From: a virus | Taxonomy: Duplodnaviria > Caudoviricetes | Strand: one strand, 5' to 3' | Virus record (IMG/VR): IMGVR_UViG_3300011008_000999 | Length of the DNA: 64,000 nt | Part shown: one piece after another, positions 36,120 to 60,656 of the stretch | Numbering within the stretch: position 1 is the first letter of the stretch | Layout of the letters: each line of letters opens with the position of its first letter | Notes under the pieces: model-generated | Told to the model about the DNA's origin: nothing | The model's database searches: none | What the model saw: only the letters and a program-made list of their open reading frames with translations | Position numbers and translations under genes: made by a program

Positions 36120-37929
36120 TTATGAACCAAATGTAGAATCTTCATCATCGTCTTCCATGTCTTCTTCACGCTTCTTAGCAAATGGGTTAGAAGTAAGAAG
36201 GTTTACATCATAAATAGACTTGATACGAATAATACCATTACGATTCAATCTATCAATCATGAAGCAAGTACCTGTAGGAAAGTTAGTTGCTGATGATACA
36301 ATTGAATCTACATCAATAGCTGAAGATGGATTGATCTTAGACGTATCAAATGCATCTAAGAACAGCTGTGCTTCTTCCATAGATGACTTGAACATAAACT
36401 TAGTTGTAATGTAGTTTGCAATACCCTTAGGGAAGTGAGAAATACCCTGAGACGCAAGTACAGTAGCAACATTAAGTGAACGACCAAGAACAAGGAATCT
36501 ATCTATAATAGCACCCATCTCCTTGTTACCAAATAATAAGTGCGCCTCATCACAAATAAGTGTTGTAGGAATCTTATTATCACCAGAAAGAATATCAAGT
36601 AACTTTGTAGTTATAATATAAAGAATAGCTGATGTAAATCTTTCATTTGCATCATAGTCTTCAGGTTTCTTAGAATAATCAGGAAGACTAAGACCATGTA
36701 ATGAAATAACCATAGAATCTGTAGATGAAAGTACAAGTGGCTTTACATTTGTTTCACGAGTAAAGAGTAACTTACCATACTTGTTATCTTCAAACATCTT
36801 AAGCAATGTACCAACAGTCTGAGCATATTCATTCTGGTTAGCATAAAGATAGTCTGCAACATCCTGCATATCATAATAATCGCCAGTAGTTTTAGCTCTA
36901 GTAACAAAGTCTGTTACAATAGGTGTAATACCAATAATAGTATTTCTTTCAAGCTTACCACACATGATTTCAATAACAGTCATAAGTGTAGCAGTATCAA
37001 TATACTTAATATTACCTTTCTCGTCGATTTTCTTTAAGAATTCGAACGGATTTAAAGCACCTGGACGAATCTTATTGATGTCAATAATACTGATGTTAGG
37101 ATTTACATTATACAACTTATCAAAGTCGTTTTTAGGGTCAATAGCAATAACTCTTTGACCCATACCTAAACAATTTGCTGCAATATTTAATAGTGCAAAT
37201 GTCTTACCTGAACCAGGAGAACCTACTACAATAGTAATATCGATAGGTAAGCCTTTGAAGTTATCTCCAGCTTTTCCCCCGATCCACACCGTGCATGCGA
37301 TTTTCATCGCACACGGCGTTCCATCAAGATTTAATTATTCTCGAGTTACAATTAAACCATTGACTTGTGGCCATTACTACTATTCTCATTACAAGAATTA
37401 TCGACGCTTCGACCACTACTTTTCAGCATTAGTTAAGTAGCTTATTATTCTTCGTCTACAATCTAAATCGACTAATACCTTTCCTCGTTCCAATATATTC
37501 TATCTGTACATATACTTTTAGGTGCCTACTTTAGACTAATTTAGCTTGGATGTACCCGCCTGATAAATCATTCGTACAACATAGTATTTCATAGCCAAGC
37601 ATTTTACTTTACTACACTAAATTATCTGTATACTTCGTAGGTTCGTCAGATTTCGTTATCATTCTCACCATGAGTATTTTATAGACTTCCGGCATATTCT
37701 GCCGACTTTACCGAGCTTCTAACAATTAAAGTTTCCTTATATATTGCTAGTCGAAGATTAAAGAATGTGTTTCAAGTCGTTACTCTATCATTCCACATTT
37801 CGAATATATTAGTTCTCCATACATAACTGTATGTGTTTAGCCTTTGTGTATTTAAGCTAAAAACGAGTCGCACCCTGGCGCATTATTTACCATCTGAGCA
37901 GTTGTAGGACTCCATTTGATAGTACTCAT
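36120..37929 (-). CDS. VirB4/ConE-like conjugation ATPase, two exons (37874-37929 + 36120-37236), 390 aa spliced
   Basis: Spliced start MSTIKWSPTTAQMVNNAPG|TIVVGSPGSGKT; IDPKND, LNPF, ICDEAH, GRSLN...ASQ. Confidence 0.82.
37237..37873 (-). mobile_element. ORF-less group II intron (637 nt, class B-like)
   Basis: 5' GTGCGACTCG; domain V GAACGCCGTGTGCGATGAAAATCGCATGCACGGTGTG; domain VI ending CCTATCGATAT; EBS1 CTTGGC (37594-37599) complements IBS1 GCCAGG; excision restores the frame. Confidence 0.92.
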
Positions 37930-37932
37930 TTT

Positions 37933-38967
37933 CTAATTTTCCTCCTTTACTATAGGTCCAACTGAATAAACAGTTCCTTTATTAGTTTTGTTTCTATATA
38001 ATTTTGGAATAGGCATAATAAAATTATTCTTATTAAAGTCTAATTTAGAATATATGTCTTTTCCTAAAATTAACGATTTTAATAATAGCTTTTGTTGTTC
38101 AAAATCTTCAAATTCATATATATGTATTAGACGTATTCCTTTATCTTTGCATAATAATGATTTTTTGAGATGATAATCTTTACTACATCCATTTTCTGTA
38201 GAATGCCAATAGTTTCCATTAAATTCTATAGCTAGCTTTAAATCTGGTAAAAATATATCTAATTCATTTGGATATATAATCTTACGTCTATTTTCTAATA
38301 CTGGTCCAGTATAAAATGACTTAATATAATTTACTAAATCTTTTTCTTTATACGACATTCCAGCATTAGGTGTTATAGAACTTTTGTATTTTACTATTTT
38401 ATCTATATCTGAGTTTTTAACAAATGCATGTGCTTTATATATAGTAATATCCACAATATGTCTCCAACTATCACCATATTCTGGTATTAAATCTGTAACT
38501 AATGTACAATCATTTTCTTTTGCATACTGATCTAATAATTGTTGTTTAGTTAACTTCATTTTAGCCGAATTTACATATATCTCTGAACCATAACGTTCTT
38601 TACAAGTTTGTCTAGTTCTTTGCTGACATTCTTGAGATTTAACTGTATTAGATATTTTTCTTTTTCTTTCAGTAGTATCACCATTCCAAACATTACTTAA
38701 TTTTTGTCTAGTTTCTTTAGAAAATGTATGACCGTAAAAACTATTTAACTTACCTACTTTAGTTTTTCCTATTTCACTGAGTTTTTTATTTCTATTAAGT
38801 CTAACACATTCTGGACATTTACTACTTTTATAAAGAATTTGATGTACAGTTTTAACATAACTGCCATGTGTATCACATACTAACGTTATTGGTGTATCAT
38901 ATGTTACATCATTATATGTAAGATTTGGAAATACTGAATTGAGTCTATTTGCTAAATATGTACTCAT
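37933..38967 (-). CDS. Free-standing Vsr-like (PD-(D/E)xK) homing endonuclease
   Basis: C..HG and CPEC zinc motifs, NUMOD3-like NSFYGHTFSKETRQKLS, ELDIFLPDLKLAIEFNGNYWHS, IRLIHIYE. Confidence 0.82.
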   Translation of the reverse strand: MSTYLANRLNSVFPNLTYNDVTYDTPITLVCDTHGSYVKTVHQILYKSSKCPECVRLNRNKKLSEIGKTKVGKLNSFYGHTFSKETRQKLSNVWNGDTTERKRKISNTVKSQECQQRTRQTCKERYGSEIYVNSAKMKLTKQQLLDQYAKENDCTLVTDLIPEYGDSWRHIVDITIYKAHAFVKNSDIDKIVKYKSSITPNAGMSYKEKDLVNYIKSFYTGPVLENRRKIIYPNELDIFLPDLKLAIEFNGNYWHSTENGCSKDYHLKKSLLCKDKGIRLIHIYEFEDFEQQKLLLKSLILGKDIYSKLDFNKNNFIMPIPKLYRNKTNKGTVYSVGPIVKEEN

Positions 38968-44057: not shown

Positions 44058-45623
44058 TTATTTCTTCCATTCAAATTTTAATGAACCACTACCCCAAATT
44101 ACTGGATAATTCTTAAGCTTACTATATAACTTAGGGTTTCTTGCAACTACATTATCTCTAGATATTACATACCATTTATTTGGACCAGTATCTCCAATTA
44201 GCTCCATACCTAAAGCTAAATAAGACTTACCATCAAACTTATTAAAGTCACAATAACTGAATACTTTTGATGGAGTATAATCAGTGACAAAATGTTTAAA
44301 TAACTTACTTACACCACCTATGACTATATTATTAGAACCTGGACAACCACGAATGATTTCCCATTCATTATCGTTTTTAAGGTTTCTATTATATCTAGTT
44401 TTACTAAATGACATAAGTTGAACTAATTCATTTTTGTAGAATAATCCATACGTAACTTGAGCATTTCTATGACCTTGTAAATGCGTAGCTTCATTAAATG
44501 GTTTAGCATCTTGATTAGATATTAGCCTAACTTCACACTGACGAGCATATATCTTAGATACTGAACCTAATGATATATTCAGTAACTGCTTAATCTTATC
44601 AGGATAATTAGACCATTCCCATTCATAAATATGAATCAATCTTATTCCTCTATCTCTACAAGCTTTAGACTTATCTATATGATAAGTTTTATTCTTATGT
44701 TCTGCATCATGCCAGAATGTTCCATTACACTCTATAGCAATATGTTTATCTGGAATATATACGTCTAATTCATAAGGCTTTAGAATATCTCTAGTATTAG
44801 TAATAATCTTACCAGAATAGATAGATTTAATGTAGTCAATAACTTCAGTTTCAAATAAAGAACTTTGATAATGATTAATCTCACTATATTTTTGGATATT
44901 GATAAGCTCTGAATTCTTTATAAAGGCATTATTTCCACAATAAATAGGATGTACGTTAATCTTATCAATAACAAAAGTCCAACCAAAACCATATTTCTGA
45001 ATAACTTCATCTCTACTAATACAATCATTTTGTATCATAAATTCTTGTAATCTAGACTGTTTTAATTGTTTTGTATGTTGTTTTACTATATCAGACTGCT
45101 GAGGACGTTCTGTACCATATTTAGCTAAACTAGTAGCTTTACTTTTGTCCTTAACATCATCACTTTGCCAAGAATACTCTACTCCATAACGTTCTAGATT
45201 AGTTTGTCTAATCTTTTCTTTTATTTGTTCCGATGCATATACATTTTCAACACCATACTTCTCGACGTTTGTTTTAGCTCTTTTAGTCTTAGCTTCTTTT
45301 GATTGACTATTTACTTTTGCTTTTTCTTTAGTCTCCTCAAGATTAAGATTGCATTTTACTCCATATTTTTCAATAGAAGTTTGTTTAATCTTTTCTCGGA
45401 CCACTGGATCTAAGTTAGCACACTTAGAAGAACAATATAATCTATAACCAGTTAGTATAGTATCAAATGCAGTTTCTTTTCCACAAATCTTACACTTACC
45501 TTCAGAATCAGTTTTAAGATACTTATCATAATAATCTTTACTTGCTAACTGATGTTTTCTCTTAAGATGACTACTTATTCCTTTAGGTCCGCATTCTTGA
45601 CCACATATTTTACACTTAAACAT
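44058..45623 (-). CDS. Homing endonuclease: zinc fingers + Vsr-like nuclease + Hef-like C-terminal domain
   Basis: CKICG..SHL...H, KYGVE repeats, ELDVYIPDKHIAIECNGTFWH, IYARQCEV..HLQG..GGVSKL..FSYCD. Confidence 0.82.
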   Translation of the reverse strand: MFKCKICGQECGPKGISSHLKRKHQLASKDYYDKYLKTDSEGKCKICGKETAFDTILTGYRLYCSSKCANLDPVVREKIKQTSIEKYGVKCNLNLEETKEKAKVNSQSKEAKTKRAKTNVEKYGVENVYASEQIKEKIRQTNLERYGVEYSWQSDDVKDKSKATSLAKYGTERPQQSDIVKQHTKQLKQSRLQEFMIQNDCISRDEVIQKYGFGWTFVIDKINVHPIYCGNNAFIKNSELINIQKYSEINHYQSSLFETEVIDYIKSIYSGKIITNTRDILKPYELDVYIPDKHIAIECNGTFWHDAEHKNKTYHIDKSKACRDRGIRLIHIYEWEWSNYPDKIKQLLNISLGSVSKIYARQCEVRLISNQDAKPFNEATHLQGHRNAQVTYGLFYKNELVQLMSFSKTRYNRNLKNDNEWEIIRGCPGSNNIVIGGVSKLFKHFVTDYTPSKVFSYCDFNKFDGKSYLALGMELIGDTGPNKWYVISRDNVVARNPKLYSKLKNYPVIWGSGSLKFEWKK

Positions 45624-45664
45624 ATTTATCTCCAATTCTACTTAGAGATAAATATCTCTAAGCT

Positions 45665-46060
45665 TTAATCTTTTACTTCGACTAAAGTGTCGATTGACAA
45701 TGGGTTATTTTGAATAATACCAGGCAAAACGGAAGCATCATTACGCTGAGTACAAAGTATACAATGTATTCCAGCAGATCTTCCAAGCTGAGTAATACTT
45801 TGTATGTTACTAATAATCTCGTCTTTTAAAGCGTCTTCAGCTTTACCTTCAGTAGTTTTAATACCAGACTTACCAGTTAACTCTGCAATCTCATCTACTA
45901 CAATCAATAGACGAGGCATTTCATCTGTATAACATTTATCTACACAGTTCTTATTGACTGGAATCCAATGTTCTCCATCAAGTTGAATTTCAAGTTCTGG
46001 CAATTGAACTTCTACTTTTGCTTTAGCATTTTTACCAGTATCATTTAACATCCATCCCAT
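45665..46060 (-). CDS. FtsK/SpoIIIE (coupling protein-like) ATPase internal fragment ending in an intein-N remnant
   Basis: PRLLIVVDEIAEL (Walker B), LGRSAGIHCILCTQR, PGIIQNN then PLSIDTLVEVKD-stop; no Walker A. Confidence 0.85.
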   Translation of the reverse strand: MGWMLNDTGKNAKAKVEVQLPELEIQLDGEHWIPVNKNCVDKCYTDEMPRLLIVVDEIAELTGKSGIKTTEGKAEDALKDEIISNIQSITQLGRSAGIHCILCTQRNDASVLPGIIQNNPLSIDTLVEVKD

Positions 46061-46063
46061 TGT

Positions 46064-46957
46064 TTAATTCACCTCCAATTTACCTGCACCATATATAGTA
46101 TATCCATTATCATATATCTTAGTTGGTTCAGGAATAACATCTAATAAACTATTTTTATTAAAGTCATTTTTAGGATATTTGTCTATACCTAAAATCAATT
46201 CTTTTAATAAATGTTTTTGTTTATCAATATCTTCAAATTCATAAATATGTATTAGACGTATACCTTTATCTCGACATAATAATGACTTATGTAAATGATA
46301 ATCTTTAGGCGTTCCAGCATTTACAGAATGATACCATTTACCATTATACTCTATGGCTAATTTCAAATCTGGCAAATATATGTCTAATTCGAATGGATAA
46401 ATAATCTTACGTCTATTTTCTAGTATTATTCCTTTATAGAACGTTTTTATATATTCTACAAGTTCTTTTTCTGCATGTGAAGTGCTACAATTAGGCCTTT
46501 TTACTGATACATAGTCTATAATTTTTTGTATTTCATTGATAGGCACAAATTTAGTTTGACTATCCATATAAATAAAATTAACTATATTACTTGAATACCA
46601 ACCATGTCCATATTGTACTCTTAAATCATTCGCAAATATACAATTATGGTCAAGCTCAAATTGTTTTATTTTACTATTTCTAGTATCTTTCCATGCATTA
46701 GGATTAAAATGATCCTTGTCTGAATACATACATTCTGGCGAGCAATATTTTCCAATATATCCTATAGAGATAGTTTTGAACTTGGTATCTTTTCCACATA
46801 CTGTACATTTTCCTTCATTAGGTTTTCTTAAATATTTATCATAATACTCTTTAGCTGAAAGTTTATGTTCAATAAGATGATTACCTAATACTTTACATGT
46901 TTTACTACATATTATACAAGTTTGTGATTGATCTCCATTACGATCGAACCATCCCAT
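46064..46957 (-). CDS. Free-standing Vsr-like homing endonuclease
   Basis: Zinc fingers, EYYDKYL...EGKC, ELDIYLPDLKLAIEYNGKWYHS, IRLIHIYEFED. Confidence 0.82.
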   Translation of the reverse strand: MGWFDRNGDQSQTCIICSKTCKVLGNHLIEHKLSAKEYYDKYLRKPNEGKCTVCGKDTKFKTISIGYIGKYCSPECMYSDKDHFNPNAWKDTRNSKIKQFELDHNCIFANDLRVQYGHGWYSSNIVNFIYMDSQTKFVPINEIQKIIDYVSVKRPNCSTSHAEKELVEYIKTFYKGIILENRRKIIYPFELDIYLPDLKLAIEYNGKWYHSVNAGTPKDYHLHKSLLCRDKGIRLIHIYEFEDIDKQKHLLKELILGIDKYPKNDFNKNSLLDVIPEPTKIYDNGYTIYGAGKLEVN

Positions 46958-55311: not shown

Positions 55312-57003
55312 TTACATAGATGCAATGATTTTCTTATACTCATCGTCATCTGGAATTAGACTAGGCTGATTATTCCAATCAGTGATCCATATAATAGATC
55401 TATCTAAACACTCTTCTTTAGTTCTATTTGGATTATACTTATAGATAAGTTTAGCGTACATCTTAATATCTGAACGTCTATTTCTACAATCAGCTAATCT
55501 TTCCCATGCGGCATAATCATCAGATTTAAGCTCGTCTCGCCAATCGTCATTCCACTTTTCATCCATAGTATTACCTCTCTTATCTATCCTTAATATTTAC
55601 TTCTAATTTGTTCTTTACATTCTTCGCATATATGACCAGTTACATTAGCGTACATTTTATTAAGTTCATATGTCTTTTTGCATCCAGTACAAACACAAGC
55701 GTCTTTAAGAGCTTCATCAATAATTGTACTTAACTGTAAATGATGTTTATTATCTATAGTTGTTAAATAACCTTGAGCACCATATTCAGGTCCATCAAAA
55801 CAAATATATACACCAATATCAGTTCTTCCAGGTCTACATACTAAAGCAATTCCATACCATTCTTCATTAGTCTTTTTCTGAAACTGTGGTATAGGAATTA
55901 CAATTTGATCATCTTTTACAAAATCACATTTATAATTGTTTAGTTCAGCCAACAGATACCTCATATCTGGGCGACTATCGATATCTACCATAAGATTATC
56001 CTCCATTTCTACATATAACTCTGTCAAAATACTTAGGCACGTTTTGTAAGTCTTTATTCCTAATAGTGATTTCCAATAAAATATCAGCTTCAAGATTATG
56101 CACTTTAGCTAAATATTCATAATATCTTGTTATTTCATTTACTAATGAAAATACATCTTGATCCCACTCTTCTGCAACCCATAGAATAGCAATAGTGGCA
56201 TCGTCATAATATACAGACTCTACATAATAATCTCTTAATCCATAAGGTATATTACAGATGTTAACTGCATCTTTTTGTTCAGGTGGCATTTTATTACTAT
56301 ATTTTGGTCCATTGATCTTAATATCACAGAACTCTCTTATAAAACTACTTGCTTTCATCATGGACCTCCTTTAGCTTTTCTTTGAAATTTATATATTCAT
56401 ACATTGTTATTCCTAAACTATCTATTGTATGTGAATAAAATGTACTATCTGCATATTTAATAAAGTCATCAGTAAATCGACGACCATCACAACATATTTG
56501 TCTGACATATTGTCTATTTTCTTTTGTGTTTGATTTTCTTAATAATTTTAACGTATTTTTAGTCGCTATATACATTGGTAGACTACGTGTATCAAAAAAC
56601 ATTAGTGAAAGTGGTCGGCTAAAAAACAATACAACACATATAATTAAAACTGTTATGCATGCTAATACCGACTGCACATTGTTCACTTCCTCTCTATATA
56701 TTTTCTAGTAGTAAAGTCTATACAATCACGAACTATTCTATTATAGAGTAATTCATCATAAGATTTAAAAGTACTCCATTTATATGGATGCTCATTAAAC
56801 TTAGCTTTACCTGTGATATCATAGTAGTCTTTATCTATTTTGCAGATAAAATGATTTTCAATTGGCAAGTAATATATCTCACCATTAAAGTGTTCTTTTA
56901 AAATCACTGCGAAATAATAACAATTACCATGCAGAAATAGGTCTTCAACCTCACTTGCATGGCAAAACTTAAACTTCTTTATGAATTTTTCAACATTATC
57001 CAT
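55312..57003 (-). other. Run of small hypothetical genes
   Basis: ORFs 55312-55566, 55590-~56000, 55996-56361, 56345-56686, 56683-57003. Confidence 0.6.
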
Positions 57004-57011
57004 ACTATCCT

Positions 57012-57452
57012 CTACTGTACACTATCTAACAGTTGAGTAGGAGATAAGAACATTAAACAAGGAAAATTTCGTACAATACCAAATATGATTAAGGTGGATA
57101 AGAATATTCCAATAAACCATATAGTGAATTTTGACCATTTACCTCTGAATACATAGAATATATTTTGATATAAGTAAACCAATATAACAATTGGCCACAT
57201 AATAAATACATAAGGATTCCATCTAAATGCTTGATATAAGTCATGATCGTAAAGTACACTTTCTATAAGTCGAGTTGTACCACAGCCAGGACAATTAACT
57301 TCAAAATGCTGATGGATAGGACACTGGATCCTATAACCTATATGCCATTCTATAATTACAAAAGCAATACATATACAAACTATAAAGATATTTATAAGTA
57401 AGACCAGCTGGATTCTATCCACACTGGTCTTCTTGGAGGAGGGTCTATTCAT
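57012..57452 (-). CDS. DUF2752 membrane protein
   Basis: CP......CPGCGTTR........YQAFRWNP...FGIVRN. Confidence 0.85.
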   Translation of the reverse strand: MNRPSSKKTSVDRIQLVLLINIFIVCICIAFVIIEWHIGYRIQCPIHQHFEVNCPGCGTTRLIESVLYDHDLYQAFRWNPYVFIMWPIVILVYLYQNIFYVFRGKWSKFTIWFIGIFLSTLIIFGIVRNFPCLMFLSPTQLLDSVQ

Positions 57453-57800
57453 TTGATAATTCCTTAATTATTTGCGTACATTCCAGCACCTGCAAGAATA
57501 ATGTTGTACATATACTGCAGAAGTGCGATGCTGTCACCTCTGAAATTCTGGATCTTAGCGATTATCTTCTTCTGATAAGCAGTTGCCTCAACATAAGTAT
57601 TCACAAAGACAATCAGCTGAGTTTTCTTTTCTGCCATTGAAATAGTTTCATCAAGGCAAATCTGATCGAAATTCTTATGATATTCCTCAAGAGTAAAGGC
57701 AATTGAACCTTCAACCTTAGTAAAATCCACTGCGTTGTTCTTTTTCTCGTTAATTTTCTTTGCCATGTAAAATACCTCCACGTATTTTTATTATGATATA

Positions 57801-57833
57801 ATTATAACATGACAAAGTCAACTTGTAAATAGT
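57801..57833 (-). promoter_or_regulatory. Conserved promoter ACTATTTACA-N17-TATAAT driving 57464-57781
   Basis: Consensus motif. Confidence 0.85.
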
Positions 57834-57891
57834 TTTTAGAAAATTTTTTCAAAAATTTTAGTTACTTTGATATAATAAATATACACATTTA

Positions 57892-58353
57892 TTATACCTC
57901 CTCAAATTTCTGCTCTTTACGATTATCGATCTCAGCATGCTCACCACTAAAGTCAATAACTGTAGTAGAGTTCATGTTATCGAGATCAATTTCTCCTTCA
58001 AGTTTTACGTCATCAGCAACCTGTGACGTCATTCCACTATAACCTAAATCATCAAGACCACGTTGTTTGAAATATGTCTCTGTAATCCATTTCTGTTGTT
58101 CAAAATAATATTGAACACGAGAAATCTGACCTTGCATCTTAGTTATACCTGCACCTTTATGAGTACCATCTACAGTAGTACCAAGTGTCGAACCAAGAGC
58201 CATCATTGATGCAGTCTGTTCCAAACGTCCAGCAACGATCTAAATACGAGCAGCACAATTATGGGTAAAGATCATTTTCTTATCCATTGTTGTTCCACTC
58301 TTATTTAGATCACCTCCTTTACGTTTAAAAACTTTTTCTAAAATATTTAACAT
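57892..58353 (-). CDS. FtsK-like ATPase C-terminal fragment preceded by an intein-C remnant; in-frame TAG at 58240-58242
   Basis: RBS GGAGG + MLNILEKVFKRKGGDLNKSGTTMDKKMIFTHN|CAARI*IVAGRLEQTASMMALG...KGAG...RVQYYF; continues the FtsK fold where 45665-46060 stops. Confidence 0.75.
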
Positions 58354-58363
58354 AATTTTCCTC

Positions 58364-59227
58364 CTATAATAATTTTCCTGCTCCATATACATGATAATTT
58401 CTTTCACTAGTATGTATTAAAACAGGCTTTGGAATCTTTCCAAAATTGTTTTTATTGAAATCCTTTTCATTATATAAGTCAATTCCATTTAATAAAGAAT
58501 TTAACTTATAAATCTGTATATTAAAATCTTCAAATTCATATATGTGTATAAGTCGTATATCTTTATTTCTGCACATAATTGATTTTCGTAAATGATAATC
58601 TTTAGCTATTCCAGCTTCTAATGAATGATACCAGGTTCCATTATACTCTACTGCAAGCGTTAATTCTGGAAAATATAAATCTAATTCTAATGGTGATATT
58701 ACTGTTTTTGTATTTTCAAATACCTTTCCATTATAATTGATATATTTTAGAATATTCTTTTCCTTATGACTTCTTCCACTTATAGGTGTATATTTGAATG
58801 ACTTAATAATATCGAGATATTTATTATCTACATATTGGTACATCTTTGATACACGTATAATTGGAATATCAAGTCTTTGCCAATCACGTCCATATAAATC
58901 AATTAACTTTACAATATGCGTACAATTATTTGATTTTTCAAATTCATCTATTATTTGATGCTTAGTTTTCCATTGATTTAAATGATCCACTTTACTAAAA
59001 TTGCTTTGGGCAATAACTTGACACCTTTTACAACAATACGTATTATATCCTCTATCCATTCCATAGAAGTTAGTTGGTCTATTACATACGAGACATATTC
59101 CTTCATTTGATTGTTTCATGTATTTATCATAATACGAATGTTTATCTAAATTATGATAACTAGTAATATGTTTACTTAATGGTTGAATATTTTTATATTC
59201 TTTACCACATATATTACATTTTACCAT
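58364..59227 (-). CDS. Free-standing Vsr-like homing endonuclease
   Basis: CNICG..LSKHI..H, YYDKY...EGIC, ELDLYFPELTLAVEYNGTWYHS, IRLIHIYEFED. Confidence 0.82.
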   Translation of the reverse strand: MVKCNICGKEYKNIQPLSKHITSYHNLDKHSYYDKYMKQSNEGICLVCNRPTNFYGMDRGYNTYCCKRCQVIAQSNFSKVDHLNQWKTKHQIIDEFEKSNNCTHIVKLIDLYGRDWQRLDIPIIRVSKMYQYVDNKYLDIIKSFKYTPISGRSHKEKNILKYINYNGKVFENTKTVISPLELDLYFPELTLAVEYNGTWYHSLEAGIAKDYHLRKSIMCRNKDIRLIHIYEFEDFNIQIYKLNSLLNGIDLYNEKDFNKNNFGKIPKPVLIHTSERNYHVYGAGKLL

Positions 59228-59326
59228 ACAATCGCTTCCTTAGTGTAAAAACCATATTTTTAGACGTGGTCTGCTTAGGTTTTATTCTTTTTAATAGTCT
59301 CATAATAATTTCCTCACAATTTCTTT

Positions 59327-59758
59327 TTACTCCTTATTGGTAGGATATTTAACTGCACTATTTCTCTGAAGTCTATCACAGAAATCAAGAAATGCTTCCT
59401 TATCTTCTGGATTAGAGAAAGGAACGGTAAATGTAAGTGTGCCATGTCCTTCAATAGTTCTATCCGGCTCAATCTTAAGTAAGAGCTTACCTGTGTTATC
59501 ATATACACTAAAGTTCTTTGCTTCGGTCTTGTAATTCGGATTGTTAGCATAAACTTCATTATCTTCTAACATGTCAGGTAAGTAATCAGGTAAATTACGA
59601 TTAACTTCTTCCTGAGCCTCTTTCTGAGTCATGCCATCAATTTCTACATTCACAGGAATCTGCTGAAGCTCACCCATAAGTTCAACAACCATTCCATTTG
59701 CAGCATCAGCATTTAATGCAATGTCAATATATTTTGCTAATACTTCTCTTGAATACAT
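59327..59758 (-). CDS. Hypothetical protein
   Basis: RBS AGGAGG before MYSREV. Confidence 0.65.
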   Translation of the reverse strand: MYSREVLAKYIDIALNADAANGMVVELMGELQQIPVNVEIDGMTQKEAQEEVNRNLPDYLPDMLEDNEVYANNPNYKTEAKNFSVYDNTGKLLLKIEPDRTIEGHGTLTFTVPFSNPEDKEAFLDFCDRLQRNSAVKYPTNKE

Positions 59759-59868
59759 ACTAAATCCTCCTTTGTGTAATAAAAACAAAGGTAAGTCAAG
59801 CTGACCTACCTTTTATTTTTCGCATCCACTATTATTATTAAATAGCTTTTTATGCGATTTAGTTATCT

Positions 59869-60120
59869 TTAATCATCATCTCTACCAATAAAGGTGAGTC
59901 CTTTTACTTCAAATAAACCTACATTTTCAAAGTGAATAGCTTTGTTTTCTGGATCTATTTTAACAATCTTGTCATGAAACATTCTACCTTGAGTGGTAAC
60001 TACATAGCATTTATCTCCAGTAATAAGATCACATCTGCCAACTGTACCAGTAACTACTATTCAAGAAGAGGTAGATAATGACAAATTACCTGATGCATAT
60101 CCACAAAAATATTTGTTCAT
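59869..60120 (-). pseudogene. Small ORF with in-frame TGA at 60061-60063; possible paralog of 43650-43955
   Basis: RBS GGAGG; frame continues to ...FEVKGLTFIGRDDD (cf. FNFKDIIFIGELED). Confidence 0.6.
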
Positions 60121-60129
60121 AATACCTCC

Positions 60130-60656
60130 TTAGTTATACCATCCAGGCTGTTCATACTTTTCTCTCATTTTTGGAAGACATTCTGGACAACATCTACCTG
60201 CAAATGAATATCTTTGCTGCTCTTTATATGGAACTGACTTTCCACATACTGGACAAGTGTCCATAGCTGCTTTAGCTTTACTTACAATATCAGATAAGCT
60301 AGATCCTTCAGGACCAATAAAGTCAGTAAGTTTTTCTGCTATAATTTTTAATTCAGCCTTTAGCTCTCTAGCAGAATATACACGCTTATCTACGCCTAAT
60401 TTCTTTGAACTAATTCTAACGCACAAATTACTATAATCTGCATAATCTGGATAGTCAACAGTAATTTCAATTGATGTTTTGAATATACTATATGTTATTG
60501 TACCACTAAAACATCCCAAGCACCTGGATCATTGTCATAATCTAAATGTCTTAAACTACCTTTACCATCTATATCAACATTAAATGGACCATCTGCACGA
60601 TTTGTAAAATCTACAACATATTTAGCTAGTCTAACTGTAGTATCAAAATTTCCCAT
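60130..60656 (-). pseudogene. Zn-ribbon protein with a 1-nt frameshift near 60515
   Basis: RBS + MGNFDTT...DNDPGAW joins GCFSGT...CPVCG...CCPEC if one G is added to TGGGA. Confidence 0.65.

Follow-up and report, generated by a model that had tools for sequence, protein, structure and literature searches.

A six-base, stop-initiated coding gap in a large-phage gene and its probable crossing by a ribosomal hop

The window analysed here is a stretch of 64,000 nucleotides (nt) from a tailed virus (Duplodnaviria; Caudoviricetes), taken from IMG/VR record IMGVR_UViG_3300011008_000999. On its minus strand lies a small gene, here called the gapped gene, whose reading frame is interrupted by the six bases TAG-ATC. 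The arrangement of the site, together with a series of related gaps in homologous genes, suggests that ribosomes probably cross this gap by a programmed stop-hop, from the ATT codon directly before the stop to the ATC codon that closes the gap. On a wider reading, which we hold tentatively, phage homing endonucleases may spread a gene leader together with a stop-initiated gap of 4-38 nt, and pairing of the leader on the exit side of the ribosome may drive the hop. Short natural hops might then be routine in large phages, one motor ATPase might need a hop and protein trans-splicing five codons apart, and the efficiency of the hop could set the dosage of the product.

The gapped gene and the gap series in its relatives

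The window is the reverse strand of positions 79126-143125 in a 331,944-bp virus record that bears direct terminal repeats. The GC content is 32%, the minus strand of the window holds nearly all genes, and the open reading frames (ORFs) are long and densely packed when read by the standard code. Using ARAGORN, 40 tRNA genes were found in the whole genome, tRNA-Ile(GAT) and tRNA-Gln(CTG) among them, as well as a transfer-messenger RNA (tmRNA). The gapped gene starts with an ATG at 58353-58351, 7 nt downstream of an AGGAGG ribosome-binding site, and consists of the following parts:

58243..58353, minus strand: coding segment 1, with the ATG, a 26-residue variable leader, the conserved ..MIFTHN and then C-A-A-R-I
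58237..58242, minus strand: six-base coding gap, TAG plus ATC, without counterpart in the family consensus
57892..58236, minus strand: coding segment 2, V-A-G-R-L-E.., 114 codons and a stop (57894-57892); the conserved protein body, with 149 homologues

The codons around the gap read ACC CAT AAT TGT GCT GCT CGT (58248-58246), ATT (58245-58243), TAG (58242-58240), ATC (58239-58237) and GTT (58236-58234), so that the stop and its flanking codons were found on the minus strand exactly where an earlier note on this DNA had placed them. Past TAG the frame remains open for 115 sense codons, ATC included. The proposed take-off codon is ATT (58245-58243) and the proposed landing codon is ATC (58239-58237). 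Both are decoded by one tRNA-Ile(GAU), and the phage itself encodes tRNA-Ile(GAT). When TAG and ATC are dropped, the family consensus ..CAAR-I-VAGRLE.. is restored exactly, which bears out what the earlier note had supposed from the translation.

Homologues were searched with the read-through product of the gapped gene as query. All 149 homologues are small proteins on large contigs of uncultured phages (up to 533 kb). The 47 contiguous homologues share the consensus ..(I/V)FTHN-C-A-A-R-(I/M/V)-V-(A/C)-G-R-L-E.., which does not contain the two extra codons. Among the 120 homologue clusters, 53 are contiguous, 8 have been translated with TAG as Gln by public pipelines, and 59 either start no earlier than the first Met past the site or show N-termini that are out of frame. 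This leaves 67 of the 120 clusters interrupted or mis-read, and the gap was present in each of these for which DNA was retrieved. Gene callers have therefore mis-annotated P0002-P0006, P0011, P0019 and P0110 as well as the 59 truncated clusters, either by a switch to TAG=Gln on short contigs or by truncation at the Met after the gap. As a consequence of the gaps, over half of the entries for this family in databases are truncated or have been given the wrong genetic code.

DNA could be obtained for 46 homologue loci, and reading their junctions gave 22 distinct interrupted alleles. The gap lies after the Arg-Ile/Met/Val codon (site A) in 16 alleles, in one of them a codon earlier, and between the Asn and Cys codons (site B) in the other 6. 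The six-base insert of the window occurs in variant forms in the independent assemblies of relatives, which shows that it is not an assembly error. In addition, individual gaps of the family were recovered in identical form from as many as four independent samples, and this recurrence indicates real DNA. Judged from these sequences, the insert in the window is well beyond chance.

The gaps are 4, 4, 4, 5, 6, 6, 6, 7, 8, 9, 10, 10, 12, 12, 13, 14, 15, 16, 18, 24, 25 and 38 nt long. Their lengths modulo 3 are distributed 9/9/4, so that keeping the frame is not favoured and 13 of the 22 are not multiples of three. In 21 of the 22 alleles the first triplet of the gap is TAG, TGA or TAA; the sole allele without a stop, L034, has a GCCC-GTAA-GGGC (GNRA) hairpin in the A-site position. 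We also compared the last triplet of each gap with the sense codon preceding the gap. The two are identical in 11 alleles and synonymous in 3, the ATT/ATC of the window included, while in 6 others the last triplet is pairable with the same anticodon via one G-U pair and in 2 it is mismatched. At site A, the landing codon matches in all gaps of at least 10 nt (8 identical, 2 synonymous); L044 is a synonymous-landing allele that needs another tRNA. In two alleles, L017 (38 nt) and L030 (25 nt), every one of the three frames is closed by stops, and two in-frame stops each are present in L015 and L042.

The gapped genes carry the marks of selection on both sides of the gap. Over the 22 gapped alleles, synonymous sites are nearly saturated, with proportions of synonymous differences (pS) of 0.65-0.75, and the corresponding non-synonymous values (pN) are 0.08-0.16. 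The ratio of non-synonymous to synonymous rates (dN/dS) is 0.10 over the ten codons from the gap to the first in-frame Met, a stretch that has no start codon of its own, and 0.08 over the next 45 codons. Over the 10 codons ahead of the gap it is below 0.15, lower than the downstream ratios. Two alleles with the same 6-nt gap, L002 and L006, differ downstream of it by 29 synonymous and 4 non-synonymous changes (ratio 0.04), and none of the gapped alleles has a second lesion. The strong purifying selection on both flanks and the absence of second lesions reject the idea, raised in the earlier note, that the insertion inactivated the gene. Moreover, purifying selection between the gap and the first Met rejects a product limited to the part after this Met. 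These results indicate that the gapped genes are functional.

Leader pairing and the proposed hop

Two further elements of the gapped gene lie in its leader and around the gap:

58237..58311, minus strand: 75-nt long-range hairpin, with arms 58311-58302 (5') and 58246-58237 (3') forming 10 perfect base pairs
58308..58319, minus strand: internal 12-nt perfect Shine-Dalgarno-like sequence AAGGAGGTGATC, encoding K-G-G-D, directly 5' of and overlapping the 5' arm of the hairpin

The arms and inner helices of the hairpin are as the earlier note gave them, with G-U pairs in two of the inner helices. The 5' arm consists of leader codons (G-D-L-N-K), and the 3' arm of the Ala-Ala-Arg-Ile codons, the stop and the landing codon. 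Folding of 58325-58225 gave -34.4 kcal/mol compared to a shuffle mean of -16.9 (z = -5.5), and none of 200 dinucleotide shuffles was as stable. For the alleles, a 102-nt segment terminating 12 nt beyond the gap start was folded. The mean structure z-score was -2.8 for the 22 gapped alleles and +0.2 for 7 ungapped ones (Mann-Whitney p 1e-5, which is not a strict probability, the alleles being kin). The 5' arms occupy differing positions in the leaders and are misaligned by MAFFT/RNAalifold; hence each allele was folded separately and duplexes with its own leader were compared to those with foreign leaders.

Almost every site-A allele has its take-off codon within the 3' arm of a long-range stem. 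A duplex between the 21-nt take-off arm and the allele's own leader was found in 15 of the 15 site-A gapped alleles tested and in none of the 7 ungapped alleles. Its mean stability was -20.0 kcal/mol in the former and -7.9 kcal/mol in the latter, with disjoint ranges (p 6e-6). For the alleles with a diverged 3' arm (L017, L030, L044, L004, L020, L007 and L038), the own leader was the best partner among all 22, which indicates covariation between the two arms. For instance, the Arg codon AGA of L017 is matched by TCT in its leader, whereas in the clade of the window CGT is matched by ACG.

All gapped alleles of site A have the Shine-Dalgarno-like motif ahead of the 5' arm, and for the short-leader alleles L012 and L015 it is the true ribosome-binding site of the gene. 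Bypassing of the gene 60 type involves a signal in the nascent peptide some 25-30 residues ahead of the take-off. In the gapped gene, a K-R-K sequence is found 25-27 residues ahead of the take-off Ile; basic leaders occur in ungapped alleles as well. The longer gaps have compact GNRA-type tetraloop hairpins at their start and A-rich 3' parts, and both features have been described for gene 60 of phage T4 (bioRxiv 10.1101/2022.08.31.505936). Compact hairpins at or just past the stop occur only in the longer gaps of the relatives L017, L030 and L034.

On the stop-hop reading, translation from 58353 would bring ATT into the P site and the slowly decoded TAG into the A site. Peptidyl-tRNA-Ile(GAU) would then leave ATT, the mRNA would slide by six bases and the tRNA would re-pair with ATC. 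Decoding would restart at GTT and give a single polypeptide with the junction of the family consensus, ..CAAR-I-VAGRLE... By the time ATT occupies the P site, the hairpin's 5' arm and inner helices would already be outside the ribosome, and zipping of the remaining hairpin pairs could pull the take-off region out via the exit channel. By analogy with gene 60, the helix re-zipping behind the ribosome probably pulls the mRNA forward.

A different pairing was seen in the short-leader alleles L013, L018, L022, L027 and L003. Here perfect pairing joins the region of the start codon to the ..IFTH codons, which lie about 45 nt further downstream (ATGCGTAAAAA and TTTTTACGCAT). The same pairing is also seen in ungapped alleles, and its occurrence suggests a control of translation initiation that would be independent of the gap.

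The endonuclease cassette and the putative partner piece

Directly upstream of the gapped gene lies an endonuclease gene, preceded by a remnant of an older 5' end; a piece of an ATPase gene lies elsewhere in the window:

58364..59227, minus strand: free-standing homing endonuclease gene of 287 amino acids with an N-terminal C2H2 zinc finger (phrog_3339 'homing endonuclease', E 2e-29)
59244..59303, minus strand: stub of the displaced original 5' end, with ribosome-binding site, ATG and 20 codons, resembling the N-termini of the ungapped P0008 and P0010
45665..46060, minus strand: putative partner piece, the Walker B-to-TQR part of an FtsK-like ATPase (PF01580 FtsK_SpoIIIE positions 167-218 of 221, E 2.5e-4)

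The orthologues of the endonuclease in relatives carry PF24308 DUF7487. The stub encodes a short K-rich leader ending in ..MVFT, which is truncated just ahead of the HN codons and continues into the start of the endonuclease gene. L006 has a corresponding stub, which matches P0010 without difference over the latter's first 18 residues. In a tract reaching from the start of the endonuclease gene to about 140 nt beyond the gap, the window and L006 are 90-98% identical, compared to 50-80% on either side of it. Between L002 and L006, pS is 0.05 for leader and gap compared to 0.39 for the gene body. The stub, the tract of high identity and the difference in divergence between leader and body imply that endonuclease gene, replacement leader and gap move together. 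These comparisons indicate a cassette of endonuclease gene, replacement leader and gap, which overwrites the 5' end of the resident gene.

Of the gapped loci, 9 have an endonuclease gene of this family upstream and 11 are without one; among the 9 ungapped loci it is present in 1. The single ungapped locus with an endonuclease gene, L014, has an altered target sequence (..ARI-CC-GR..). By analogy with the T4 system described below, the gap most likely disrupts the site that the endonuclease itself would target. No match to a group I intron or other Rfam RNA was found in 57000-60500. A classic intein with an in-frame endonuclease was ruled out, the endonuclease having an ORF to itself, with a start of its own and in a different frame.

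About 10 paralogues of the zinc-finger homing endonuclease are present across the genome. Those in the window lie at 46064-46957, 44058-45635 and 37933-38967 on the minus strand, and several paralogues adjoin pieces of ATPase genes. Downstream of the paralogue at 37933-38967, a 625-nt stretch (37308-37932) holds fragmentary ORFs only.

The protein encoded by the gapped gene has no sequence match in Pfam, PHROG or PDB, and no similar DNA or protein was found in the GenBank phage collection. A search for a longer fused homologue, including a fused FtsK covering its body, was likewise negative. The AlphaFold model of the isolated piece is poor (predicted local distance difference test score, pLDDT, of 54), as would be expected of a fragment. 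Coding segment 2 is probably the C-terminal piece of a fractured FtsK-like ATPase. At the HN/C position, the 47 contiguous homologues all have N and C, and nearly all have T and H. A shared 12-residue tail, which resembles intein block A, closes the FtsK-like piece at 45665-46060 and all its relatives; one of them, P0158, runs on instead into a long N-intein that has block A, B and F-like motifs and no block G. These features make it plausible that ..HN/C is a split-intein splice junction. If HN/C is such a junction, leader and body must be one chain, and a crossing of the gap by the ribosome is all the more needed. In other relatives of the FtsK-like piece, P0122-P0154, a mini-intein of about 150 residues with an Ala start and an ..ISHN/S end lies between TQRNDA and SVLPG; the FtsK-like copy of the window is without it.

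Competing explanations and known systems

Several observations weigh against a hop. In the short alleles L007 and L010 the landing triplet has a mismatch at the middle position, and a +1 or +2 shift adding few residues could also pass most of the gaps that are not multiples of three; L017 and L030 cannot be crossed by such a simple shift. The matched flanking codons could partly stem from the origin of the insert, by duplication at a staggered cut, instead of from selection for re-pairing. The take-off codon sits in the 3' arm of the hairpin, contrary to the take-off stem-loop of gene 60, and the window allele was not found to form a take-off stem-loop that holds this codon on its 5' side. The association between gap and endonuclease, taken alone, is suggestive and statistically non-significant (9:11 vs 1:8). 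The window gap is in frame and only 6 nt long, which makes a full-length product by stop-codon readthrough feasible. Finally, a sigma-70-like gene of the same genome (genome position 30348, outside the window; L047:849-851) carries TAG in frame exactly in place of the conserved Gln in the DL(I/V)Q.GN motif of region 2, where the nearest relative, L049, has CAG. This TAG hints at some suppression of TAG, or at a nonsense variant in the assembly.

The earlier note had left a programmed stop-hop and readthrough side by side. In readthrough, TAG would be decoded by a near-cognate tRNA, for example the phage tRNA-Gln(CUG), or by an unrecognised suppressor, and the product ..CAARI-Q-IVAGR.. would be two residues longer. 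The phage does have tRNA-Gln(CTG) besides 39 further tRNAs, and several alleles have been given TAG=Q by public gene callers. For the in-frame window allele such decoding is conceivable, but the 13 gaps that are not multiples of three, and two gaps with a second in-frame stop, show that it is not the mechanism of the family. Moreover, 26 long ORFs end in TAG, and no suppressor tRNA with a CUA anticodon was detected by ARAGORN across the genome; candidates obtained at relaxed thresholds matched no Rfam model. Readthrough would also leave the matched flanking codons and the gap-specific RNA pairing unexplained, and we consider it unlikely. The programmed stop-hop, on the other hand, is supported by the gap series in the relatives, by the stop and the matching codons, and by selection on the flanks.

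The other explanations fare worse. Removal of the gap before translation, either by excision at the RNA level via the hairpin and the repeated codon or because the insert is present in a subpopulation of genomes only, could exploit the direct repeats of the flanking codon and the strong hairpin. We find it improbable: the gap is located in the stem and not looped out, no Rfam match was found across 57000-60500, the same gaps recur in up to four independent samples, and the stop that opens 21 of 22 gaps indicates that it is the ribosome which reads them. We know of no bacterial or phage mechanism for the excision of 4-38 nt. Synthesis of two polypeptides is harder still to credit. Here the stop at TAG would release a 37-residue leader peptide and the body would re-initiate at TTG 58224 via a split ribosome-binding site bridged by the hairpin, as in T4 gene 38. 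A perfect 12-nt Shine-Dalgarno-like sequence does adjoin the 5' arm, and the TTG lies 13 nt beyond the hairpin base. However, this Leu codon is TTG in some alleles only (TTA, CTT, CTG or CTA in others), the codons from the gap to any start codon evolve under purifying selection in the joined frame (dN/dS 0.10), and a single chain is required if HN/C is a splice junction. The least probable reading is that a quasi-palindrome-templated or repair-generated insert of 6 nt killed a dispensable gene. A templated origin, as proposed in the earlier note, is compatible with the data, the exact complementarity of the six bases to GATCTA in the upstream arm being what template switching would give, and a metagenome-derived genome may hold defective variants. 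Inactivation is contradicted by the 29 synonymous and 4 non-synonymous changes between L002 and L006, by a dN/dS of about 0.1 over the 22 alleles, by the absence of any second lesion, and by the interruption of more than half of the family's clusters.

The stop-hop proposed here has its closest counterpart in T4 gene 60, which forms a mobile cassette with MobA and whose 50-nt gap protects against this endonuclease (Manning & Atkins, bioRxiv 10.1101/2022.08.31.505936). In the same work, the gap was found wherever the endonuclease occurs and persisted in lineages without it, and pairing of the exiting mRNA was proposed as driver. Both systems have a coding gap near the 5' end of a gene piece, in a host gene that was already split, with a stop directly 3' of the take-off codon and a matched codon closing the gap. 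In gene 60, one of the mRNA stem-loops uses sequence already outside the ribosome, and the leader hairpin of the present family may do likewise. Both systems also have an upstream free-standing endonuclease gene that travels with a new N-terminal extension and a gap, the gap outliving the endonuclease. The host gene of T4 is a topoisomerase gene (Topo2L), whereas it is a small FtsK-like piece here, and MobA is an HNH endonuclease, in contrast to the C2H2 zinc finger with DUF7487 / phrog_3339. The gap of gene 60 is a conserved 50 nt, while those of the present family are diverse (4-38 nt, at two sites; 6 nt and in frame in the window). In addition, the take-off codon of gene 60 lies in the 5' side of a stem-loop and that of the window in the 3' arm of a long-range hairpin. 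These comparisons indicate that the window cassette is analogous to T4 MobA/gene 60, not homologous.

The layout of the site is identical to that of synthetic 'stop-hops' in E. coli, in which codons that match lie on both sides of a stop and 9 nt yield one amino acid, according to a review (Weiss et al. 1987 via PMC5009743). In both, a sense codon is followed by a stop and a codon for the same tRNA, and decoding resumes at the next codon. The synthetic sites are artificial and of low efficiency, whereas the window site is natural and conserved and would have a dedicated RNA structure. No natural in-frame stop hop is known according to the review (PMC5009743). The mitochondrial 'byp' elements of Magnusiomyces capitatus are given as 27-55 nt long at 81 sites genome-wide (bioRxiv 10.1101/2022.08.31.505936, PMC5009743). 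As described there, they too are many short variable inserts in conserved genes, with matched codons (sometimes in two of three positions) and a slow or unreadable A-site codon, and are apparently mobile. By the same accounts they differ in their mitochondrial setting with relaxed decoding and in being GC-cluster-like without an endonuclease gene, while the present gaps are confined to two hot spots in one gene.

Stop-codon reassignment in large phages (code 15, TAG=Gln) offers a further parallel, as there too TAG stands in frame within genes of huge phages from gut or rumen. Here, in contrast, TAG is a normal terminator, no suppressor tRNA was found in the genome, and the gaps of the family are mostly out of frame or begin with TGA/TAA. 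Global recoding of TAG was rejected for this genome, in which 285 long ORFs end in TAA (220), TGA (39) or TAG (26), and same-frame TAGs are mostly ordinary gene ends. In 2009, Dassa and colleagues reportedly described fractured genes whose halves carry split inteins and are separated by a free-standing homing endonuclease gene. The gapped gene resembles them in having an endonuclease gene directly upstream and in opening with a short intein-C-like tag, ..HN followed by Cys. It differs in that the tag comprises the last strand (block G) only and the putative partner piece is 12 kb away. To our knowledge, a coding gap in the C-terminal gene has not been described for fractured genes. Apart from homologues of gene 60, the byps of yeast mitochondria and a candidate in a Streptomyces phage, the literature searched yielded no such families.

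Programmed bypassing is among the rarest departures from triplet decoding. The gene family provides a graded natural series of gaps from 4 to 38 nt at the same codon, with a minimal 6-nt form in the window. With a covarying leader helix for each allele and ungapped alleles as controls, this series is material for studying how far ribosomes slide and which signals they use. It also bears on whether pairing of the exiting mRNA drives the slide, and on self-protection of endonucleases via gaps in general.

Upstream of the stub, a small ORF at 60120-59869 on the minus strand has a strong AGGAGG and runs for 19 codons to a TGA (60063-60061), followed by 63 open codons (..IVVTGTVGRCDLITGDK..). No matched flanking codon is evident at this TGA, and the ORF could be another recoding site or a short regulatory ORF. 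Elsewhere in the genome, ARAGORN reported two Arg-like tRNA-like genes with abnormal six-base anticodon loops (150356-150445 and 150545-150618), and the phage tmRNA lies at 157842-158201 and has the tag ANYGYAAA. The tRNA-like genes and the tmRNA may bear on ribosomes stalled at stop-containing gaps.

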